Part shown: positions 6,597 to 14,602 of the stretch, piece by piece | Layout: each line of letters opens with the position of its first letter | How positions within the stretch are numbered: position 1 is the first letter of the stretch | Virus record (IMG/VR): IMGVR_UViG_2908567220_000007 | DNA from: a virus | Taxonomy: Duplodnaviria; Heunggongvirae; Uroviricota; Caudoviricetes | Direction: 5' to 3' (one strand) | Length of the DNA: 14,602 nt | Made by a program: the position numbers and the translations under genes | Notes under the pieces: model-generated | Database searches by the model: none | What the model was told of the DNA's origin: nothing | Seen by the model: only the letters and a program-made list of their open reading frames with translations

Positions 6597-7247
6597 ATGA
6601 ATGCACGAAAAGCGGTACTGGCAGACAATCCGGAATTGATCCTGCGTGTGCTACAGCTGAGATTTGACGAGTCACTGTCGTACCCGCGCATTTCTGCGCA
6701 GACCGGTGTCAGCAAAACCGCCATTTTTTCTCTGGTGAGGCGATTTCACCAGGTATTCACTGACTGGCCTCTTTCCGGTGAATATTCCTGCGGGCAACTG
6801 GCCCGGGCTCTTTTCCCGGGGCGATACCCTTCAGCCCCGACCGTGACTCAGCCTGTGAAAGCAGAGAAACCCCGCCGGAACCGATTTTCACCGGAGTTTA
6901 AATGGAGACTGGTTCAGCAAACTCTTTTACCCGGTGCCTGTGTCGCACAAATAGCTCGAGAGAATGGAATTAACGATAACCTGCTCTTTAACTGGCGGCA
7001 TCTCTGGCGTAACGGTGGCCTGCAACCGCCCGGCGAACATGAAACATCGCTACTTCCCGTGACGTTAACTCCGGAGCCGGATAATAAAATCCCGGCACCA
7101 GTGCAGATACCTGAACAGATAAATACACTGCCAGACAGTCTGTGCTGCGAGCTGGTTCTGCCGGCCGGAACTCTCAGGCTGAAAGGTGAACTGACACCGG
7201 CGTTATTACAGACACTTATCCGCGAAATGAAAGGGAGCAGCCACTGA
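6597..7247 (+). CDS. tnpA: IS66-family accessory protein (orf1)
   Basis: 216-aa ORF, first in the IS; AAGGGA Shine-Dalgarno; ATGA overlap with the next ORF, as is typical for IS66 elements. Confidence 0.75.
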   Translation: MNARKAVLADNPELILRVLQLRFDESLSYPRISAQTGVSKTAIFSLVRRFHQVFTDWPLSGEYSCGQLARALFPGRYPSAPTVTQPVKAEKPRRNRFSPEFKWRLVQQTLLPGACVAQIARENGINDNLLFNWRHLWRNGGLQPPGEHETSLLPVTLTPEPDNKIPAPVQIPEQINTLPDSLCCELVLPAGTLRLKGELTPALLQTLIREMKGSSH

Positions 7248-7594
7248 TGATATCTCTCCCTGCCGGTTCGCGTATCTGGCTGGTTGCCGGTATCACCGAT
7301 ATGCGAAATGGCTTTAACGGCCTGGCCTCAAAAGTTCAGAACGTCCTGAAGGATGACCCGTTCTCCGGGCATCTGTTCATCTTCCGCGGACGCCGGGGTG
7401 ACCAGATAAAAGTGCTGTGGGCTGACAGTGACGGACTGTGCCTCTTCACCAAACGCCTGGAGCGGGGCCGCTTCGTCTGGCCGGTCACCCGCGATGGAAA
7501 GGTTCACCTTACTCCGGCTCAGTTGTCCATGCTTCTCGAAGGCATCGACTGGAAGCACCCGAAACGAACGGAACGCGCTGGCATCCGCATATAA
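7247..7594 (+). CDS. tnpB: IS66-family protein TnpB (orf2)
   Basis: 115-aa ORF MISLPAGSRIWLVAGITDMRNGFNGLASKVQ...LFIFRGRRGDQIKVLWAD, characteristic of IS66 orf2. Confidence 0.85.
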   Translation: MISLPAGSRIWLVAGITDMRNGFNGLASKVQNVLKDDPFSGHLFIFRGRRGDQIKVLWADSDGLCLFTKRLERGRFVWPVTRDGKVHLTPAQLSMLLEGIDWKHPKRTERAGIRI

Positions 7595-7613
7595 CCCGTT
7601 GTAAAGTGAGGAT

Positions 7614-9185
7614 ATGGACACCTCACTTGCTCATGAGAATGCCCGCCTGCGGGCACTGTTGCAGACGCAACAGGACACCATCCGCCAGATGGCGAAATAC
7701 AACCGCCTGCTCTCACAGCGGGTGGCGGCTTATGCTTCCGAAATCAACCGGCTGAAGGCGCTGGTTGCGAAACTGCAGCGCATGCAGTTCGGTAAAAGCT
7801 CAGAAAAACTTCGCGCTAAAACCGAACGGCAGATACAGGAAGCCCAGGAGCGAATCAGCGCACTTCAGGAAGAAATGGCGGAAACGCTGGATGAGCAATA
7901 TGACCCGGTACTGCCATCCGCCCTGCGCCAGTCTTCAGCCCGTAAGCCGTTACCGGCCTCACTTCCCCGTGAAACCCGGGTCATCCGGCCGGAAGAGGAA
8001 TGCTGCCCGGCCTGTGGTGGTGACCTCAGTCCTCTGGGGTGTGATGTGTCAGAGCAACTGGAGCTTATCAGCAGCGCTTTTAAGGTTATCGAAACACAAC
8101 GTCCGAAACTGGCCTGTTGCCGGTGCGACCATATCGTGCAGGCACCAGTACCTTCAAAACCCATTGCACGCAGTTATGCCGGAGCGGGGCTTCTGGCTCA
8201 TATCGTCACCGGGAAGTATGCAGACCATCTGCCGTTATACCGCCAGTCAGAAATATACCTTCGTCAGGGCGTGGAACTGAGCCGCGCCACGCTGGGGCGC
8301 TGGACCGGTGCCGTTGCTGAACTGCTGGAGCCGCTGTATGACGTGCTGCGCCAGTATGTGCTGATGCCCGGTAAAGTCCATGCGGATGATATCCCCGTTC
8401 CGGTCCAGGAGCCGGGCAGTGGTAAAACAAGAACTGCCCGGCTGTGGGTCTATGTCCGTGATGACCGTAACGCCGGTTCACAGATGCCCCCGGCGGTCTG
8501 GTTCGCGTACAGCCCGGACCGGAAAGGTATCCATCCACAGAATCACCTGGCCGGTTACAGCGGTGTGCTTCAGGCAGATGCTTACGGTGGTTACCGGGCG
8601 TTATACGAATCCGGCAGAATAACGGAAGCCGCGTGTATGGCCCATGCCCGGAGAAAAATCCACGATGTGCATGCAAGAGTGCCAACCGACATCACCACGG
8701 AAGCCCTGCAGCGTATCGGTGAACTGTATGTCATCGAGGCAGAAGTCCGGGGATGTTCAGCAGAACAGCGTCTGGCAGCAAGAAAAGCCAGAGCGGCTCC
8801 ACTGATGCAGTCACTGTATGACTGGATACAGGAACAGATGAAAACACTGTCGCGTCACTCGGATACGGCAAAAGCGTTCGCATACCTGCTGAAACAGTGG
8901 GAGGCCCTGAACGTGTACTGCAGTAATGGCTGGGTGGAAATCGACAACAACATCGCAGAGAACGCCTTACGGGGAGTGGCCGTAGGCCGGAAAAACTGGC
9001 TCTTCGCGGGTTCCGACAGCGGTGGCGAACATGCGGCGGTGTTGTACTCGCTGATCGGCACATGCCGTCTGAACAATGTGGAACCAGAAAAATGGCTGCG
9101 TTACGTCATTGAGCATATCCAGGATTGGCCGGCAAACCGGGTACGCGATCTGTTGCCCTGGAAAGTTGATCTGACCTCTCAGTAA
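7614..9185 (+). CDS. tnpC: IS66-family transposase (orf3)
   Basis: 523-aa ORF with N-terminal coiled-coil/leucine-zipper-like region, CCPACGG...CCRC zinc-finger-like motif and a long catalytic core, as in IS66 transposases; GAGG Shine-Dalgarno. Confidence 0.9.
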
Positions 9186-9243: not shown

Positions 9244-10650
9244 TTACAGTGGATGCACGTCATTGCCGTCGATAGTGATCACGCCGTCTTTTTCCAGCTT
9301 GTACAGCCAGCGCCGGAAGTGCTTCATCTCATACCCCAGCTTTTTCATATCGTCACGTAGCAGGGCGATAGTGCACGGCTCTTTGTGTGCTGTCCGTGTT
9401 CTTATGCACTGCCATAATGCGGCGTGATTCTCCGTCTTGTTCCCGGCCTCCTCGATGCGTTCCAGTTCAGCAGGGGCGCGGGGAACGTCAATCACCACCA
9501 TGGACACAATCTCTTCGCCATCTGTATCGGTGAACACCTCCACGCTTTTAAGGTCGTATGCGCTCTCTTTTGGCTCCTCTGCGTCCTTCATCTTCGTACA
9601 TGCCGCCACCAGTGCTGTAACGTCTGAATTTTCCCGGCCGATTCGGTACTCTGCATCAAGCGCGGCACGGAATGCGCTGGAACCACGCGCCCCCTTTGTT
9701 TCATCCTTGCCGGAATGGTGAACCACCAGCACCGTGGCCCCTGTAGCCTGCTTTATCGCGTCACACCCCTGGATAAATGCGCCCATATCACGGGAATCAT
9801 TTTCATCATTCCCACCAAAGCAACGGGCCAGCGTGTCGATCACAATCAGCCGCACATTTTCGCCCGTTCTGCTCTTAACAAGTCCGGCAGTCCTGATAAC
9901 CTGCTCCACATAGTCAGGCGATGCGGGAAAGACAGGCGCGTTAACGATGCACAAATCTGTAACCTCTTTTCCGTATGTTATCTCCCACGCCTTAACGCGG
10001 CGTTTTACGCCCATACTGCCTTCGCCAGCGATATAGATAACCGCGCCCTTACTTACCCTGCGGCCTCCCCATGCCATACCTGTGGCAACATGGCACGACC
10101 AGGAAATAGCCAGGAACGATTTATAAGAACCGCTGGCCCCGTAGGTGCTGCATAATGACTCAGCCGGAATAAGCCCCTTAATTACGTAGCTTTGCTGCGC
10201 GTCGAATCCCTCAGAACCCCATGAGATGGGAAGTGTGATTTTTCGCTTTCCACCATTCATGACCAGACTTTCCCCGCGTTCCCAGGTTTCTTTAAGCCGC
10301 GGTAGTTGCTCGCTCCAGTCCTCCAGCAGTTCGAAATTCTCTGAAAGTAACCGTGCTTCCTGGACACCTGCGATCGCCAGTTTGGTGGCAATGGTCAGCA
10401 TCTGCATATCGTCCAGGTTTCCGGCGCGTATGACCTTTGCTCTGTATCGTCCTTCATCAACAATCTGTAAATTGTCCAGTTCGCTTAACTGATAACGGCC
10501 CAGGTAAACCGGAGGGATGGGATCGCCTGCTTTTTTGGCCTGTGCAATCATGTAATGTTCTGCAAAGGAGTGAGCATTATCACCCGCAAAAATAACCGCC
10601 TCAGTGTGTTTATCTTTCGGTAACAGTTTTACGTTCGGTGCCAGTTTCAT
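9244..10650 (-). CDS. RepA-like P-loop replicative helicase (RecA-fold ATPase)
   Basis: 468 aa; P-loop-like GASGSYKS, Walker B-like RLIVIDTL, and VLVVHHSGK motif reminiscent of RSF1010 RepA-type helicases; C-terminal winged-helix-like tail; AGAGGT Shine-Dalgarno; followed directly by the iteron array. Confidence 0.75.
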   Translation of the reverse strand: MKLAPNVKLLPKDKHTEAVIFAGDNAHSFAEHYMIAQAKKAGDPIPPVYLGRYQLSELDNLQIVDEGRYRAKVIRAGNLDDMQMLTIATKLAIAGVQEARLLSENFELLEDWSEQLPRLKETWERGESLVMNGGKRKITLPISWGSEGFDAQQSYVIKGLIPAESLCSTYGASGSYKSFLAISWSCHVATGMAWGGRRVSKGAVIYIAGEGSMGVKRRVKAWEITYGKEVTDLCIVNAPVFPASPDYVEQVIRTAGLVKSRTGENVRLIVIDTLARCFGGNDENDSRDMGAFIQGCDAIKQATGATVLVVHHSGKDETKGARGSSAFRAALDAEYRIGRENSDVTALVAACTKMKDAEEPKESAYDLKSVEVFTDTDGEEIVSMVVIDVPRAPAELERIEEAGNKTENHAALWQCIRTRTAHKEPCTIALLRDDMKKLGYEMKHFRRWLYKLEKDGVITIDGNDVHPL

Positions 10651-10946
10651 TTTTTACCTCTGGATGCGCTGAGCATGCTTTTTATTTTCTTAATATTTTC
10701 CCGTGCTTTTTCCCTGCTGGTGGGCTTACTGCGTGTTGCGTTCTGTACCAGAGAAAAATCACGCCGGAACTGATAAACAGGCATCACGCAGTCATAGCCG
10801 TACCCATCACGGCGGTAAGTAACGCACCGTCCCGCCACGCTTTTAATCGTTACCGTGCCGCCGTAGTTATCCCGGAAAATATCGCCGGGGTGGATTTCAG
10901 GCCGAGCGGGGCCGCTGGCAGTAAAGCCAGAATTTTTCTGTTTCAT
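10647..10946 (-). CDS. hypothetical protein
   Basis: 99-aa ORF whose stop overlaps the helicase start by 4 nt (translational coupling); no family recognised. Confidence 0.5.
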   Translation of the reverse strand: MKQKNSGFTASGPARPEIHPGDIFRDNYGGTVTIKSVAGRCVTYRRDGYGYDCVMPVYQFRRDFSLVQNATRSKPTSREKARENIKKIKSMLSASRGKK

Positions 10947-10951
10947 GGTTT

Positions 10952-11185
10952 TTATTTCCCGGTGTGTTGTTCTTTATATCTGTCGTGCAAAAGATCTATT
11001 TCTTGTAGTTCCATTATTACCGGCTCAAGAAGCGTTATTAACGCCGTCGCAATATTGCTGTTGCGTTTATCTCTTTCATTATCGCCAAGCGTTCCAAGCC
11101 ATAAGCGCAATATTTCAAGCATGTTTTCACTGTAAGCAAGAGCACGGTATGCACGGTCTACTGTGTCATTGTAAATATCACACAT
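10952..11185 (-). CDS. hypothetical protein
   Basis: 77-aa ORF with GAGGA Shine-Dalgarno 8 nt upstream; 8-nt overlap with the upstream ORF. Confidence 0.5.
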   Translation of the reverse strand: MCDIYNDTVDRAYRALAYSENMLEILRLWLGTLGDNERDKRNSNIATALITLLEPVIMELQEIDLLHDRYKEQHTGK

Positions 11186-11411
11186 GGCTTACATCCTCAG
11201 GGAATTTTCTTCTGTAACGCGCCTCTGCCACATATTCAGCATAGTCCGACGCAATAACGAGAATATCGCTGCCTGTTCCTGAATGCTCAGTGGTTCCAAT
11301 TAAAAAACATGCGGCCTTTATCAGGTCATTAACAACCAGCAACGCATCACCCGCATCATCCGATACGCCATCAAATTCCTGTTTCAGGGCATTAAAACGA
11401 TCATCACGCAT
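11178..11411 (-). CDS. hypothetical protein (possibly the C-terminal part of a frameshifted gene)
   Basis: 77-aa ORF whose ATG lies 2 nt after a 9-nt poly-G tract (plus-strand poly-C 11414..11422); one extra G would fuse it in frame to the 11384..11644 ORF. Confidence 0.45.
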   Translation of the reverse strand: MRDDRFNALKQEFDGVSDDAGDALLVVNDLIKAACFLIGTTEHSGTGSDILVIASDYAEYVAEARYRRKFPEDVSHV

Positions 11412-11644
11412 AACCCCCCCCCATTTTCACAATCAGCAATCAGGATAGCCCTGGCCTCATTCAGTGCCATATCAGCGGTAAGCTGTGCGTAGGCCAGCGA
11501 ATGCGGGATTATTGCCCCTGTATATTCCGGCTCTCTGGTAATGTGTTTTTCCGCGGTTGCTGCCGTGCATGAAATATCAATCAGCGCATCAATCAGTGTT
11601 TTGATTGCTTCGGCGACTGCGTCCGGACGGGTGTTATTGCACAT
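11384..11644 (-). CDS. hypothetical protein (possibly the N-terminal part of a frameshifted gene)
   Basis: 86-aa ORF with GGGGG Shine-Dalgarno; reads through the poly-G tract as GGG and stops 9 codons later. Confidence 0.45.
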   Translation of the reverse strand: MCNNTRPDAVAEAIKTLIDALIDISCTAATAEKHITREPEYTGAIIPHSLAYAQLTADMALNEARAILIADCENGGGLCVMIVLMP

Positions 11645-11840
11645 GATGCACCCCCTGACGAATACGGGCGGCGAATACCATCACGCAGCCAGCCGGGGAT
11701 TGCTGGCGTGCTTCCTGTTCGCTGGTGGCCTCAATGGTAATCACGCGCGGTTGTGCCGTGCTCAGGGCGATAAAACGCCAGATGTATTTATTCAGGTTGT
11801 GCGAGTCCCGCCCTTGCGGGTGTCTGGTATAATTTCTCAT
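11634..11840 (-). CDS. hypothetical small protein, first gene of the leftward operon
   Basis: 68-aa ORF from the ATG at 11838..11840 with GAGGTA Shine-Dalgarno; it is the 3' portion of the 328-aa track ORF, the rest of which looks like antisense read-through. Confidence 0.4.
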   Translation of the reverse strand: MRNYTRHPQGRDSHNLNKYIWRFIALSTAQPRVITIEATSEQEARQQSPAGCVMVFAARIRQGVHHVQ

Positions 11841-11879
11841 AGCTACCTCGATACTCTTTCTATCGTTGGTGGTTAGACG

Positions 11880-12036
11880 CCCTGCATGTGTGCCACCACT
11901 GCGGGGCGTTGCTGTATATACACCACAATTATTGGTGTGCATACAGATTAAATTTAAGTGTGCTACAGTGTCAAGTGTTTTATTAACACACCTTTTGGTG
12001 TAATGTGTACACACCTCAAAATAACCGGACATCCTA
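11880..12036. promoter_or_regulatory. divergent promoter/operator region with clustered ACACC/GGTGT inverted repeats
   Basis: TATATACACCA-7-TGGTGTGCATA at 11915..11943; ACACC-TTTT-GGTGT at 11988..12001; GGTGT-9-ACACC with palindrome GTGTACAC at 12005..12012; three AGTGT direct repeats at 11958..11978. Confidence 0.45.
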
Positions 12037-12342
12037 ATGGCAACAGGAAACATCAACAGCAGATCGCAAATGAAAAATATCCGCTTCCCCCATGATGTAA
12101 TCGAGGAAATGGAAAATTCGAAAACGGAAGGGGAAACAATAGCCGCTTTCGTGATTACAGCTGTTCGCGGGGAGATCGCCCGCCGCCAAGCTGAAGGAAG
12201 CGGAGAAAATCCCCTGGTTTCTTCGCTCGATGCACTGGCGCAGGTGGAAAAAATTGGAGTCAAAGCTGCCGAGGAGATCGGGCAACTAGTCGCCGTCGCG
12301 CGTGAAGAACTCCAGCGCCGCAAGGCCAAAGAGCAGGAATAG
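12037..12342 (+). CDS. putative small DNA-binding regulator (possible ribbon-helix-helix; coiled-coil C-terminus)
   Basis: 101-aa ORF divergent from the leftward operon; KNIRFPHDVIEEMEN looks like a strand-helix ribbon-helix-helix start; weak Shine-Dalgarno, and an alternative start at the Met at 12070. Confidence 0.45.
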   Translation: MATGNINSRSQMKNIRFPHDVIEEMENSKTEGETIAAFVITAVRGEIARRQAEGSGENPLVSSLDALAQVEKIGVKAAEEIGQLVAVAREELQRRKAKEQE

Positions 12343-12445
12343 CCCACCAGCAAGCCAGCACACTGATCACATTGCCAACCGGATGTAATCACGGCATAGT
12401 AATCAGCGCTCATGCGTTGGGGATAACGCGCAATTAGTGTTGAAG

Positions 12446-12474
12446 GGCCACCGTAGCGGGTGGCCTTTGTTTTG
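12446..12474 (+). terminator. putative rho-independent terminator
   Basis: GGCCACC-gtagcg-GGTGGCC hairpin followed by TTTGTTTTG, about 100 nt after the 12342 stop. Confidence 0.5.
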
Positions 12475-12624
12475 CCTGTTATCCGGCAATTGTGGCGCTT
12501 CGCCACACGGTTGATATAATTCCCCTGCACTGATCCATTTTTTTCGCAGCAGGTTAATTGTTCGCAAGGGCGCTCCGGCAACGGGGCGCTTTTTGTTATG
12601 TTCATCGCGTTACGCCTCACACCA

Positions 12625-12831
12625 TTACGCAGCCGTTCCGCGCGCTTCTTCCTCGCGCTCTTTCAGCCAGGCCAGCACTTCATCTTCATACCAGCCAACA
12701 CGGCGCAGACCGATTTTGAAGCCTTTCGGGAATTTTCCGGCGTTGATCATGTCCTGTAGCGAACTGTCTGCCTTGATGCGCAGAATATTTTTTACTTCCT
12801 GACGGGTAAGTATTTTTCTGATTGTTTCCAC
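12625..12831 (-). CDS. alpA: AlpA-family phage transcriptional regulator (Vis/excisionase-like HTH)
   Basis: 68 aa; LTRQEVKNILRIKADSSLQDMINAGKFPKGFKIGLRRVGWYEDEVLAWL matches the AlpA pattern (KFP...G.R.VGW...E...W). Confidence 0.85.
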   Translation of the reverse strand: METIRKILTRQEVKNILRIKADSSLQDMINAGKFPKGFKIGLRRVGWYEDEVLAWLKEREEEARGTAA

Positions 12832-12899
12832 TATGTTTTACCTCGTTAATCCGGCGTATTCCGGTGATAAATACGGTAAAACAGGGCAGGGCGGGAAAA

Positions 12900-12935
12900 A
12901 CAGTACCCACCGTTTTAAAACGGTACCCACTGTTT
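12900..12935. promoter_or_regulatory. perfect 16-bp palindrome ACCGTTTTAAAACGGT flanked by direct repeats GTACCCAC, upstream of alpA
   Basis: Palindrome at 12909..12924; GTACCCAC at 12903..12910 and 12923..12930, 20 bp apart. Confidence 0.4.
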
Positions 12936-12963
12936 TTTATCTCATTGATTACGCTTTTCTTTC

Positions 12964-12997
12964 TGCAAAAAAATAGCGACCGCAAGGGGCCGCTATT
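12964..12997 (-). terminator. putative rho-independent terminator after the int-proximal small ORF
   Basis: Minus-strand hairpin AATAGCGGCC-ccttgc-GGTCGCTATT followed by a T-run (plus-strand A-run 12967..12973). Confidence 0.5.
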
Positions 12998-13001
12998 GTG
13001 A

Positions 13002-13244
13002 TTACCGTTTCCACTTCTTAGGTCGCCCACCGCATTTAAGGCTGGTGGGCCTCAGCACCTTGTCGATGCTTTCAGCCAGATTTTTCGATGCGCCACGCGA
13101 GCGTAAAAAACTGACTACCTCGTGTTTTGTGGGGGCTGTTGATTTGTCTTCCGGATCGTATGTTGACCAGAATTCACGATTTGCCATTAACGCCAGTTGC
13201 AGCCCTTCGCCGCAAGCAGGGGATACCTTTTCATTGAAAAACAC
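13002..13244 (-). CDS. hypothetical protein
   Basis: 80-aa ORF starting at GTG with AAGGAG 8 nt upstream; between int and alpA; followed by a terminator. An internal ATG (MANREFW...) is an alternative start. Confidence 0.5.
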   Translation of the reverse strand: MFFNEKVSPACGEGLQLALMANREFWSTYDPEDKSTAPTKHEVVSFLRSRGASKNLAESIDKVLRPTSLKCGGRPKKWKR

Positions 13245-13360
13245 CTGGATAGCTCCTTGAATTTCATGATTTGGGTGACTCCTCTCTGTATTGGGTGGGT
13301 TGTGGCGATTATACGATGGTTTAGCATGGTTTGCATTGCTTTTACTGGTTTTTTGTACAG

Positions 13361-14602
13361 TTACACGGCACGGATACCCCTTTTACCACTGGCTATGGTC
13401 ACTCCGGTAGCTGCGGCCTCTACAAATTCCCCCCACCAGCGCATAAGCACCACGCGCTTTTCCAGGTAGTTACTTCGGTTATATGCTCGCCTTACCTCGT
13501 TTGTGTCCACGTGTGCGAGTGCGGCCTCGATTACGTCCGGCTCGAATCCTTCCTCGTTCGCTGCTGTACTGAATATGGCGCGTAATCCGTGAGACACCAG
13601 CACACCAGCGTAACCCATCCGGCGCAATGCGGCGTTAGCTGTCTGGCTGCTCATTGGCAGCATTGGATTTTTAAGGCTGGGAAAAACGTGTTCCCTGTGT
13701 GCGCTGATTGGCTTCATGGTTTCCAGTACAGCCATAGCCTGACCGCAAAGGGGGATCACGTGGTCACGGCGCATCTTCATGCGTCCGGCTGGAATCGTCC
13801 AGGTTTCGGCATCGAGATCTATTTCTTCCCAGCGTGCGGCGGCTGCTTCGGCTGGGCGTGCTACGGTCAGCAGTTGCCACTCAATCAGCAATCTGGTTTG
13901 CCGTTCTATGCTGGCGACCGATAAATCGTGCATTAGCTGCGGTAGCTGTTCCGGTCGGATGGTTGGCATGTGCTTTTTGGTGGGTGAGGGGAATGCCTTG
14001 CGGACGTTCGCGGCGGTGTTGATGTCAATCAGCCCACTGTTGGCAGCAAAATCCATCACTTCATTGATGCGTTGTAAAACGCGTTTCAGGGTTTCCAGGT
14101 TGCCGCGTGCTTTAATGGGTGTGAGTATCTCAACAAAGCGGCGAGCTGTGAGGGTATCTATTGGCGTGTTTCCGATGTACGGGAATACGTATTTTTCCAG
14201 GGATCGCCAGATATCCTTAATCGTGTTGTAAGCCAGATTCTGGCCTTTTTTCATCTCGTACCAGTCCGAGGCAACTTTTTCGAACGTGTTGCCCTTTTTC
14301 CGACTCTCTGCTTCACGTTTCCGGCGTTCGTGGTCCTGTGGGTCAACTCCCTTCGCTATGAGTGACCTGTATTCATTCCGTCGTTCTCTGGCATCGGACA
14401 GGGAAACATCATTCAGCGATCCGAGGCTGATGATAGTCCGTTTTTTATCTGCCGGGCGGTAGTACGTAAAACGCCAGATTTTTGATCCGGAGGGTTTCAC
14501 CAGAAGAAATAATCCTCCACCATCCTGCAGGGTGTATTCCTTTTCCCCTGGTCGTGCGTTTTTGATCTCCGTAATAGTTAGTGGGGTGGTTTTTCGTGCC
14601 AT
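13361..14602 (-). CDS. int: P4-type tyrosine integrase (site-specific recombinase, phage integrase family)
   Basis: 413 aa; N-terminal arm-binding-like region (MARKTTPLTITEIKNARPGEKEYTLQDGGGLFLLVKPSGSKIWRFTYY); C-terminal catalytic region with HGLR box and RRAYNRSNY tyrosine region. Start codon is the last three bases of the window. Confidence 0.95.
   Translation of the reverse strand: MARKTTPLTITEIKNARPGEKEYTLQDGGGLFLLVKPSGSKIWRFTYYRPADKKRTIISLGSLNDVSLSDARERRNEYRSLIAKGVDPQDHERRKREAESRKKGNTFEKVASDWYEMKKGQNLAYNTIKDIWRSLEKYVFPYIGNTPIDTLTARRFVEILTPIKARGNLETLKRVLQRINEVMDFAANSGLIDINTAANVRKAFPSPTKKHMPTIRPEQLPQLMHDLSVASIERQTRLLIEWQLLTVARPAEAAAARWEEIDLDAETWTIPAGRMKMRRDHVIPLCGQAMAVLETMKPISAHREHVFPSLKNPMLPMSSQTANAALRRMGYAGVLVSHGLRAIFSTAANEEGFEPDVIEAALAHVDTNEVRRAYNRSNYLEKRVVLMRWWGEFVEAAATGVTIASGKRGIRAV

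Follow-up and report, generated by a model that had tools for sequence, protein, structure and literature searches.

A phased array of palindromes as the probable operator region of a ribbon-helix-helix-like regulator in phage-satellite islands of Escherichia coli

The IMG/VR virus record IMGVR_UViG_2908567220_000007 (Duplodnaviria; Heunggongvirae; Uroviricota; Caudoviricetes), whose 14,602 nucleotides were analyzed as a whole and are called the window below, is part of an E. coli phage-satellite island of the PICI (phage-inducible chromosomal island) type, in which the integrase gene, alpA and the replication module follow each other in one direction. Upstream of its leftward replication operon, which is headed by an icd-like gene, a cluster of short repeats separates this operon from a divergent gene of the YlcI/YnfO family (12037-12342). 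We consider it probable that the segment 11912-12016 is an operator array for the product of this gene, a protein with a predicted Arc-like ribbon-helix-helix (RHH) domain, which would repress the leftward operon and regulate its own synthesis; a separate antisense lock on the first gene of the operon is likely as well. This assignment comes from the comparison of the window with related islands.

A phased array of palindromes between two divergent genes

The repeat cluster is real and goes beyond what chance would produce. Within the 157 bp between 11880 and 12036, ACACC/GGTGT occurs five times (mean over the 14.6-kb window, 0.36 per 157 bp) and GTGT/ACAC 12 times (mean, 1.08), both counts being the maxima of the window, while all matches with up to two mismatches to the 13-mer GGTGTGYATACAG are confined to 11912-12015. 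The palindrome TGTN4ACA is not enriched in the window by its total count (five occurrences against 3.3 expected); the unusual part is its clustering, as three of the five occurrences fall within 101 bp. An earlier sequence-only reading of this DNA had listed a number of short motifs here, and all of them were found where it had put them (Table 1). It had also described the region as a 157-bp divergent one: the flanking genes do diverge, but the intergenic region extends over 196 bp (11841-12036), the icd-like gene starting at 11840.

Comparison with the related loci leads to a different parsing of the same letters, in which the functional units are palindromes of 10-13 bp with a fixed phasing of 22.5-23 bp. 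Five palindromes of the form TGTnnnnACA, each of 10 bp and designated O0 to O4, occupy positions 11913-12013; O0, O1 and O4 are strong, whereas O2 and O3 are degenerate. Their centers are 23, 22.5, 22.5 and 23 bp apart, i.e., about two helical turns, so that the palindromes should be found roughly on one face of the DNA. The ACACC/GGTGT pairs, formerly taken for three inverted-repeat sites with different spacers, are thus present, but they are the abutting ends of neighboring palindromes: the ACACC at 11920 ends O0, the GGTGT at 11934 begins O1, and the GGTGT at 11997 is a part of the rightward -10 block, which is conserved in every island type. The three copies of AGTGT correspond to the left edge of O2, to the leftward -35 hexamer (TGTCAA on the plus strand) and to the adjacent conserved block. 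As for the region 11880-12036 as a whole, its main stretch retains the operator-like character ascribed to it, whereas the left ~35 bp (11876-11910) belong to the hairpin of a separate element, discussed below.

Two promoters, P_L for the leftward operon and P_R for the regulator gene, were assigned on the basis of conservation across the loci. A leftward TTGACn-17/18 bp-TAnnnT arrangement is present at the P_L position in all 18 loci compared, and a TAnnnT hexamer is located 29-36 nt upstream of the regulator ATG in 17 of them. The -35 block is the most conserved part of the intergenic region, averaging 1.44 bits per column where the operator segments have 0.57-0.67 (12 island types with different repeats, hereafter immunity types), and the block TGTGTAnnnT is common to all immunity types.

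Table 1. Positions of the repeats, predicted promoter elements, RNA elements and genes in the window, and of the corresponding modules in three further islands
Feature	Position	Strand	Description
ACACC	11920, 11988, 12011		Motif of the sequence-only reading
GGTGT	11934, 11997		Motif of the sequence-only reading
AGTGT	11957, 11967, 11974		Motif of the sequence-only reading
GTGTACAC	12005		Perfect palindrome of the sequence-only reading; core of O4
O0	11913-11922		Perfect 10-bp palindrome TGTATATACA; candidate extra operator downstream of the P_L start, at about +16 to +25 of the predicted transcript
O1	11936-11945		TGTGCATACA; 13-mer GGTGTGCATACAG at 11934-11946; overlaps the edge of the P_L -10 and the predicted start
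P_L -10	11945-11950	-	Predicted hexamer TAATCT
O2	11959-11967		TGTGCTACA (TGTGC-TACA); degenerate, one base short; in the P_L spacer, abuts the -35
P_L -35	11969-11974	-	Predicted hexamer TTGACA; P_L is TTGACA-18-TAATCT, leftward
O3	11981-11990		TATTAACACA; located in the P_R spacer; weak operator or half operator, agrees with TGTN4ACA at 5 of the 6 specified positions
P_R -10	12001-12006	+	Predicted hexamer TAATGT, promoter of the regulator gene; weak -35
O4	12004-12013		Perfect palindrome TGTGTACACA; overlaps the edge of the P_R -10 and the predicted start
Regulator gene	12037-12342	+	101 aa, YlcI/YnfO family; predicted Arc-like RHH domain at aa ~9-54, long C-terminal helix at aa 59-100
Regulator terminator	12443-12468	+	Intrinsic; no U-run on the minus strand
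Extended -10 candidate	11825-11833	+	TGGTATAAT, perfect; inside icd-like codons 3-6
SL1 (stem-loop)	11840-11875	+	Complementary to the icd-like Shine-Dalgarno sequence and AUG
SL2 (hairpin)	11876-11910	+	GC-rich, with a U-rich tail at 11911-11921; probable terminator of an antisense RNA, outside the operator array
icd-like gene	11634-11840	-	First gene of the leftward operon; NCBIfam phage_ICD_like (69.7 bits), RefSeq annotation of a near-identical locus
Rest of leftward operon	9244-11644	-	Three small open reading frames, DUF4222 gene (10647-10946), AAA_25 replication protein gene (9244-10650); genes overlap or abut
alpA	12625-12831	-	Phage_AlpA (E 4.5e-8); upstream of P_L on the same strand, convergent with the regulator gene
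Integrase gene	13361-14602	-
IS66 element	6597-9185		tnpA-like, tnpB and tnpC genes; inside this copy of the island
EcCICFT073 module	L023:474-1053 (NC_004431 1380473-1381052)
O157:H7 island module	L022:4001-4369
ST131 island module	L027:2338-2920

Co-variation of the repeats with the regulator N-terminus

About 25 homologous loci (labeled L001 and onward where they have to be told apart) were available for comparison, from E. coli, Salmonella, Klebsiella, Yersinia, Erwinia, Enterobacter, a metagenome contig with a protein that NCBI assigns to Serratia marcescens and assemblies of sequencing runs. They were gathered by blastn among E. coli and by look-ups of exact proteins; a word-pattern scan of genome contigs with the regulator protein as the query yielded one locus only, its patterns being too strict. 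All relatives share one layout, consisting of alpA, in some cases a Bro or Ant gene, a gene of the YlcI/YnfO family, a gap of ~190-200 bp and a divergent operon leading toward a primase gene.

Anchored on the -35 hexamer of P_L, ~20 of the intergenic regions align without gaps. Most of 16 loci carry a repeat of their own near each of the offsets -34, -12, +11 and +34 from this anchor (the positions of O1, O2, O3 and O4, respectively), that is, one on each side of each -10. The sequence of the repeat differs between island types, while the -35 and -10 blocks are common to all. At the O1 offset (-101 from the regulator ATG) TGTGTATACA is found in L021 and TGTGTACACA in L025 (at -100 in L024), and at the O4 offset (-33 from the ATG) L021 has TGTATGCACA. 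The degenerate O2 aligns with a perfect palindrome of L002, GTGTGCGCACAT, at the same position, and clear type-specific copies occupy the O3 offset in L017, L008, L016, L013, L020 and L024. A site in the O0 position was seen in the window, in L015 and in L024 (Salmonella), but not in L021.

The repeats go together with the predicted N-terminal beta-strand of the regulator (residues 12-17). The strand MKN[IV]RF is accompanied by TGT[GA][TC][AG][TC]ACA at the same offsets in the window, L021, L024 and L025, though the flanks and the C-terminal halves of the proteins differ among these loci and the first leftward gene of L024 is of the ASH family. Regulators with SLTARI coincide with GTGTAAG/CTTACAC in E. 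coli, Enterobacter and Klebsiella, those with LTTVRV coincide with GAAACACAC, KLQARA with CTGGATTCCAG, MTTIRV with GATATACA, QISIRI with TGTGATTCAG, and ALKARV (in EcCICFT073) with GGTGTGGCCCAC. The strand KKNIRF is found with TGTGCGCACA in L002 and with GGTACGTACC in an O157 island, the cores of the two sites differing at one symmetric position. In a Mantel test the operator identity correlated with that of the N-terminal 30 residues of the regulator (rho 0.36, permutation p 0.0005, the p-value being indicative only because the loci are related), and neither the C-terminal domain (0.03) nor the leader (0.10, p 0.11) gave a correlation. Blastn alignments break inside the regulator gene at nucleotides 50, 93 and 130, which indicates that its N-terminal part is exchanged as a cassette. 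The repeats are also independent of the icd-like allele: L004 and L005 share them and have icd-like proteins with different N-termini.

The same module is present in three further islands. In EcCICFT073, which is the prototype, in an O157:H7 island beside cspD and in an ST131 island, a short YlcI-like gene is divergent from an icd-like one, and the gap between them contains palindromes of its own, namely, GGTGTGGCCCAC twice, TGGTACGTACCA twice and the GGTGTTAAACACC type, respectively. The leader together with the 5' end of the icd-like gene was detected in 1,366-1,395 of 5,426 complete E. coli genomes, i.e., in about a quarter, in up to six places per genome, and DNA similar to the regulator gene in 654 genomes. 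No match was obtained by blastn against 50,697 phage records, so the module has no counterpart in P4 or other phages at the DNA level.

The regulator as a putative RHH protein

The protein belongs to the YlcI/YnfO family, as it scores 64.2 bits against NCBIfam NF041551 (cut-off 30, residues 9-50) and a near-identical gene carries the same annotation in RefSeq. The family is small, with 83 clusters (50% identity) at E ≤0.001 among 1.84 billion representatives. A literature search gave no paper assigning a function to it, and in one survey it is entered just as a 'prophage-associated protein' (PMC13612085).

Several lines of evidence, weak but concordant, suggest that the N-terminus forms an Arc-like RHH domain. 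The alignment to Arc by hhalign is a weak one (E 0.002, probability 13.5%) and places M12-K-N14-I-R16-F-P over Q9-F-N11-L-R13-W-P of Arc, in which Q9, N11 and R13 are the base-contacting residues; the similarity to Mnt is weaker. The top Foldseek hit is the Arc-operator complex 1par, and 24 of 33 members of the family match Pfam PSK_trans_fac (Rv0623-like transcription factor), though no match reaches the gathering score (best E 0.0015). A search of the regulator against PDB sequences gave no RHH match. The AlphaFold2 model (mean predicted local distance difference test score 80) shows residues 12-18 extended, two helices (19-28 and 35-54) and, at 59-100, a single long helix, and the alignment puts a G32-E33-T34 turn (G-E-S/T in the family) ahead of helix B, so that both the strand-helix-helix topology and the G-x-S/T/N turn of RHH proteins are found. 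R16 and P18 do not vary in the family, and the types differ at positions 12-15 and 17.

The C-terminal domain (12190-12342, residues 52-101) is predicted to be a single helix of 42 residues with an invariant I73-G74. Its weak helix-hairpin-helix-like match to Hef (E 0.014) finds no backing in the AlphaFold2 model, where the helix is continuous. We regard oligomerization or sensing of an inducer as candidate roles of this helix, which is missing in the short forms (59-65 aa) from CFT073, ST131, O157, L002 and L011. L011 has two YlcI/YnfO paralogues in tandem, of 59 and 101 aa; the window has no such pair, nor does it have the small open reading frame of 65-75 aa which often follows the regulator gene in the relatives.

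A candidate antisense RNA next to the array

The hairpin to the left of O0, SL2, appears to belong to the strand opposite to the leftward operon. Compensatory changes affect 7 of its 9 pairs, and the pairs are canonical in 94.9% of the cells on the plus strand against 82.5% on the minus strand, with 33 G-U cells which fit the plus strand only. When the stretch between the start codon and the hairpin is folded, the plus strand is the more stable one in all 18 loci, with an average advantage of 11 kcal/mol over the sense strand, and its fold consists of two stem-loops and then the U-rich tail; in the window the segment 11838-11925 of the plus strand has -36.4 kcal/mol and a z-score of -4.2 (sense strand, -2.5). 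Upstream of these stem-loops a TAnnnT hexamer is located 4 or 10 nt before the complement of the start codon (CAT) in 17 of the 18 loci, with the TGn extension in 8, and this antisense -10 is kept in L024 despite its ASH-family first gene. The simplest reading of this arrangement is a cis-antisense RNA of ~78 nt (~11840-11918), which would mask the Shine-Dalgarno sequence and the AUG of the first leftward gene. The leader hairpin did not come up in the terminator scan. Rfam gave no match at the gathering score over the whole window and, at E ≤10 over 11750-12150, only the chance-level R1162 antisense and COG2908 (E 2.2); as no C4 or IsrK covariance model matched, the region is not a C4, CI or IsrK RNA. 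Esr41, considered as a known island small RNA, was rejected, as it is located in SpLE1 and is unrelated.

Two further features of this region may be mentioned. The sequence TCTAACCACCAACG (sense, 11861-11875), which follows the hairpin, varies hardly at all among the island types, less than the hairpin does; in the plus-strand fold it makes up the 3' arm of SL1, where it pairs with the region complementary to the Shine-Dalgarno sequence and AUG, and a role in the sense leader is possible. The first 5-6 codons of the leftward gene (M-x-N-H/Y-T/I; 11823-11840 in the window, 1000-1020 in L024) are kept although the proteins behind them differ, comprising three N-terminal types of the icd-like protein and the Salmonella ASH-family protein, which suggests a constraint on the DNA, such as the antisense promoter, rather than on the protein.

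Proposed mechanism

The operation of the array could be as follows. One RHH dimer would bind each palindrome. With O1 and O2 occupied, and O0 serving as a roadblock, RNA polymerase would be kept off P_L and the operon from the icd-like gene to the replication gene would be silent, whereas occupation of O3 and O4 would limit P_R and thereby provide negative autoregulation. The geometry agrees with this, since O1 would cover the edge of the P_L -10 next to the start expected near 11938, O2 occupies the P_L spacer as far as the -35, and O3 and O4 take the mirror positions at P_R; a protein bound at these positions would exclude RNA polymerase, hence the predicted silencing of the replication operon and the limit on its own synthesis. 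Dimers on adjacent sites may be coupled, as suggested by the spacing of two turns and by the long C-terminal helix. The operators together with the first ~17-43 codons of the regulator, exchanged between islands, would constitute the 'immunity type', and different types would prevent cross-regulation of co-resident islands. An antisense RNA running from TGGTATAAT to the hairpin at 11876-11910 would be the second and separate lock, acting on the ribosome-binding site of the first gene. The genetic switch that the sequence-only reading had seen here, with repressor operators overlapping divergent promoters, thus gains support as to its anatomy from the comparison of loci, as the -10 boxes are bracketed and the repeats co-vary with the 12037-12342 protein. 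Its control of the helicase operon, also suggested there, is a reasonable view, since the leftward genes overlap head to tail up to the AAA_25 replication protein. No feature was seen that would tie a helper phage to the switch, which the same reading had named as the possible point of induction of the island; in published work, Gram-negative PICIs are induced by way of helper-activated alpA (PMC6092414).

Some points weigh against this proposal. AlpA is sufficient to induce EcCICFT073 (PMC6092414), so any repressor must be one that can be overridden. A two-hexamer promoter scan called neither P_L nor P_R, and the -35 of P_R is poor. There is no sign of a simple residue-to-base code: T14 and R16 are common to LTTVRV, SLTARI and MTTIRV, the sites of which differ. 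The loci behind the Mantel statistic are not independent, and the AlphaFold2 monomer has no beta-strand, which is expected for an RHH monomer and is not a proof.

Two ways of overriding the repressor can be envisaged. The intrinsic terminator behind the regulator gene has its U-run on the plus strand only, and transcripts from alpA could therefore read through it, antisense to the convergent regulator gene, into the leftward operon; such read-through might be driven by AlpA. The other possibility is offered by the Bro and Ant proteins encoded between alpA and the regulator gene in many relatives. As an observation on the islands themselves, genes annotated as Bro-N or AntA/AntB 'antirepressors' are found downstream of alpA in L002, L004, L005, L011-L013, L015 and L020, and none is present in the window. 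We put forward, as a tentative idea that could well prove wrong, a master switch of Gram-negative PICIs made up of a diversifying RHH repressor, phased operators and an antisense lock, overridden via AlpA read-through or Bro/Ant proteins, in which the types would set cross-repression.

Alternative explanations

RHH proteins are commonly plain autoregulators. The regulator could accordingly bind the array only to control itself, or it could activate P_L, the leftward operon being ruled by AlpA-dependent transcription from upstream. Such a view is in line with the position of alpA upstream on the same strand, with the plus-strand specificity that the sole intervening terminator appears to have, and with the findings that over-expression of AlpA alone induces EcCICFT073 and that alpA mutants are not induced (PMC6092414; 10.1101/2022.09.08.507074). 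It does not account for the bracketing of the -10 of a leftward promoter, conserved in 18 of 18 loci, by O1 and O2, which are positions typical of repression and not of activation, nor for O0 downstream of P_L and the symmetry of the layout at both promoters, and we consider it improbable.

There is little likelihood that the repeats are bound by another protein of the island or the host, such as AlpA, the icd-like protein, CRP or LexA. AlpA is a DNA-binding regulator encoded 600 bp away, and the sequence-only reading had named it as a possible binder; yet L006 and L009 have the same AlpA and different repeats, and one repeat set occurs with five AlpA alleles, so this claim is not supported. 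The icd-like family is labeled 'transcriptional repressor' by PHROGs, but the repeats are not tied to the first gene any more closely, given that they are the same in L004 and L005 with their different icd-like proteins and that L024 combines an ASH gene with window-type repeats. A host factor would need no distinct site for each island type. As to particular host factors, CRP (TGTGA-N6-TCACA) and LexA (CTGT-N8-ACAG) were rejected, as judging by eye the sites do not appear to fit.

Slightly less credible still is an action of the repeats in RNA, as a leader structure, an attenuator or an antisense target in the leftward transcript. The arms of O0 and O1 can pair into a 6-bp hairpin at the 5' end of the minus-strand RNA, and RNA-based immunity (C4/CI RNA, IsrK) operates in some Gram-negative PICIs and in P4 (PMC10111431). 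O2-O4 are, however, located upstream of the predicted P_L start, O0 is absent from L021 with the same type of regulator, and Rfam at E ≤10 offers no match beyond the chance-level ones given above. Besides, the orientation of the repeats varies while their position is kept (as with O2, direct in the window but inverted in L004), which fits protein sites and not RNA helices.

Finally, a spacing of 22-23 bp is typical of iterons, and the repeats stand at the head of a replication operon. Nevertheless, a replication origin is the least likely of all the readings, since the origins of PICIs are reported to lie downstream of pri/rep (PMC6092414; PMC10111431), the palindromes are in mixed orientation, wrapped around -10 boxes and co-varying with the RHH N-terminus, and the window and L001 have identical repeats with an AAA_25 protein in the former and a primase-family protein in the latter.

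Island context

The right 4 kb of the window are 97% identical to an island of NZ_CP148493 which adjoins tRNA-Pro/yejM and has capsid genes and a different primase. With its nearest relative, L001, the window shares only 10627-14602 and the SSB gene, and the place of the complete AAA_25 protein of the window is taken in L001 by a DUF5906-type primase; this swap makes the replication module a mosaic. Truncation of the replication gene by the IS66 element was considered and rejected, the AAA_25 open reading frame of 468 aa being complete. Beyond the IS66 element, genes for SSB, ProQ, DUF1441 and PerC are found.

The first gene of the leftward operon is assigned by PHROGs to phrog_6196 (E 7.5e-45), the source of the label mentioned above, and NCBI names the same family a cell-division inhibitor; as the first regulated gene, it sits in the place of a Cro-like counter-regulator. 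A GGTGTG is also found at 12618-12623, just past the stop codon of alpA.

Relation to known systems

In Gram-negative PICIs, which according to surveys are mostly unidirectional and possess AlpA, Bro-type proteins and immunity RNAs (PMC10111431), the existence of a repressor has been called unclear (PMC6092414), and none was described in the literature on these islands as we searched it. Helper-activated AlpA is needed to induce EcCICFT073 and EcCIEDL933, its over-expression being sufficient for the former (PMC6092414; 10.1101/2022.09.08.507074), and the AlpA of Pseudomonas aeruginosa acts as an antiterminator (PMC7969949, PMC9371919). The prototype EcCICFT073 possesses the module described here, as do the O157:H7 and ST131 islands and, judging by the leader, about a quarter of the complete E. 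coli genomes. If the regulator of this module is a true repressor, this RHH protein would supply the missing quiescence factor, the uncharacterized YlcI/YnfO family would obtain a function, and the specificity types would explain the coexistence of up to six related islands in one genome; the number of copies of the leader and icd-like gene per genome fits diversified repressor/operator types that avoid cross-talk.

The closest design is the copy control of plasmid pMV158, where several dimers of the small RHH protein CopG bind cooperatively over the promoter and exclude RNA polymerase, while RNAII, an antisense RNA whose promoter is located within the coding sequence that follows in the replication operon, at its 5' end, masks the translation start (PMC5703833). 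The island would combine four or five RHH-type sites with a candidate antisense RNA from inside the icd-like gene. The differences are that copG is co-transcribed with repB from the regulated promoter, whereas the regulator here is divergent and has its own promoter; that the RNA of pMV158 targets the replication protein and the predicted RNA the icd-like first gene; and that one is a plasmid, the other a chromosomal phage satellite, with no sequence relation detectable beyond the fold.

The layout also resembles immI of P22, with the RHH repressors Arc and Mnt at palindromic operators over the divergent promoters Pant and Pmnt, and the N-x-R-x-P of the predicted strand aligns with QFNLRWP of Arc. 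Mnt combines the RHH domain with a C-terminal helical oligomerization domain, in which it is like the long form of the regulator. Yet P22 has two regulators with one 21-bp operator per protein and an operon for an antirepressor, whereas the island has one gene, four or five sites at ~22.5 bp, promoters back to back and an operon for replication functions. Stl (Rpr) of the SaPIs and Gram-positive islands is, as proposed for the regulator here, a satellite repressor that keeps its island quiescent and is divergent from the excision/replication operon, the observed likeness being one of position only: Stl/Rpr is co-oriented with int (PMC6092414) and is not described as an RHH protein in the sources used, while int and alpA run opposite to the regulator here. 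Binding to a helper protein inactivates Stl, and Gram-negative PICIs are reported to be induced through AlpA.

In immI of P1 (c4 RNA-icd-ant) and in P4, a small RNA acting at the leader or ribosome-binding site keeps down the expression of an operon that begins with an icd-type gene. C4 and CI RNAs, relatives of which occur in PICIs (PMC10111431), arise by processing of the sense transcript and reach their repeated targets in trans, unlike the cis-antisense candidate proposed here. As for lambdoid immunity regions, the DNA-reading part of the repressor recombines there together with the operators while the flanks vary, and the islands show the same mosaicism. Lambdoid repressors are helix-turn-helix proteins with LexA-like cleavage, while the fold predicted here is RHH and no link to the SOS response is apparent. 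Taken together, these comparisons support the view that the array and its regulator are an uncharacterized example of a familiar type of switch, predicted in a family of elements from which such a switch was missing.

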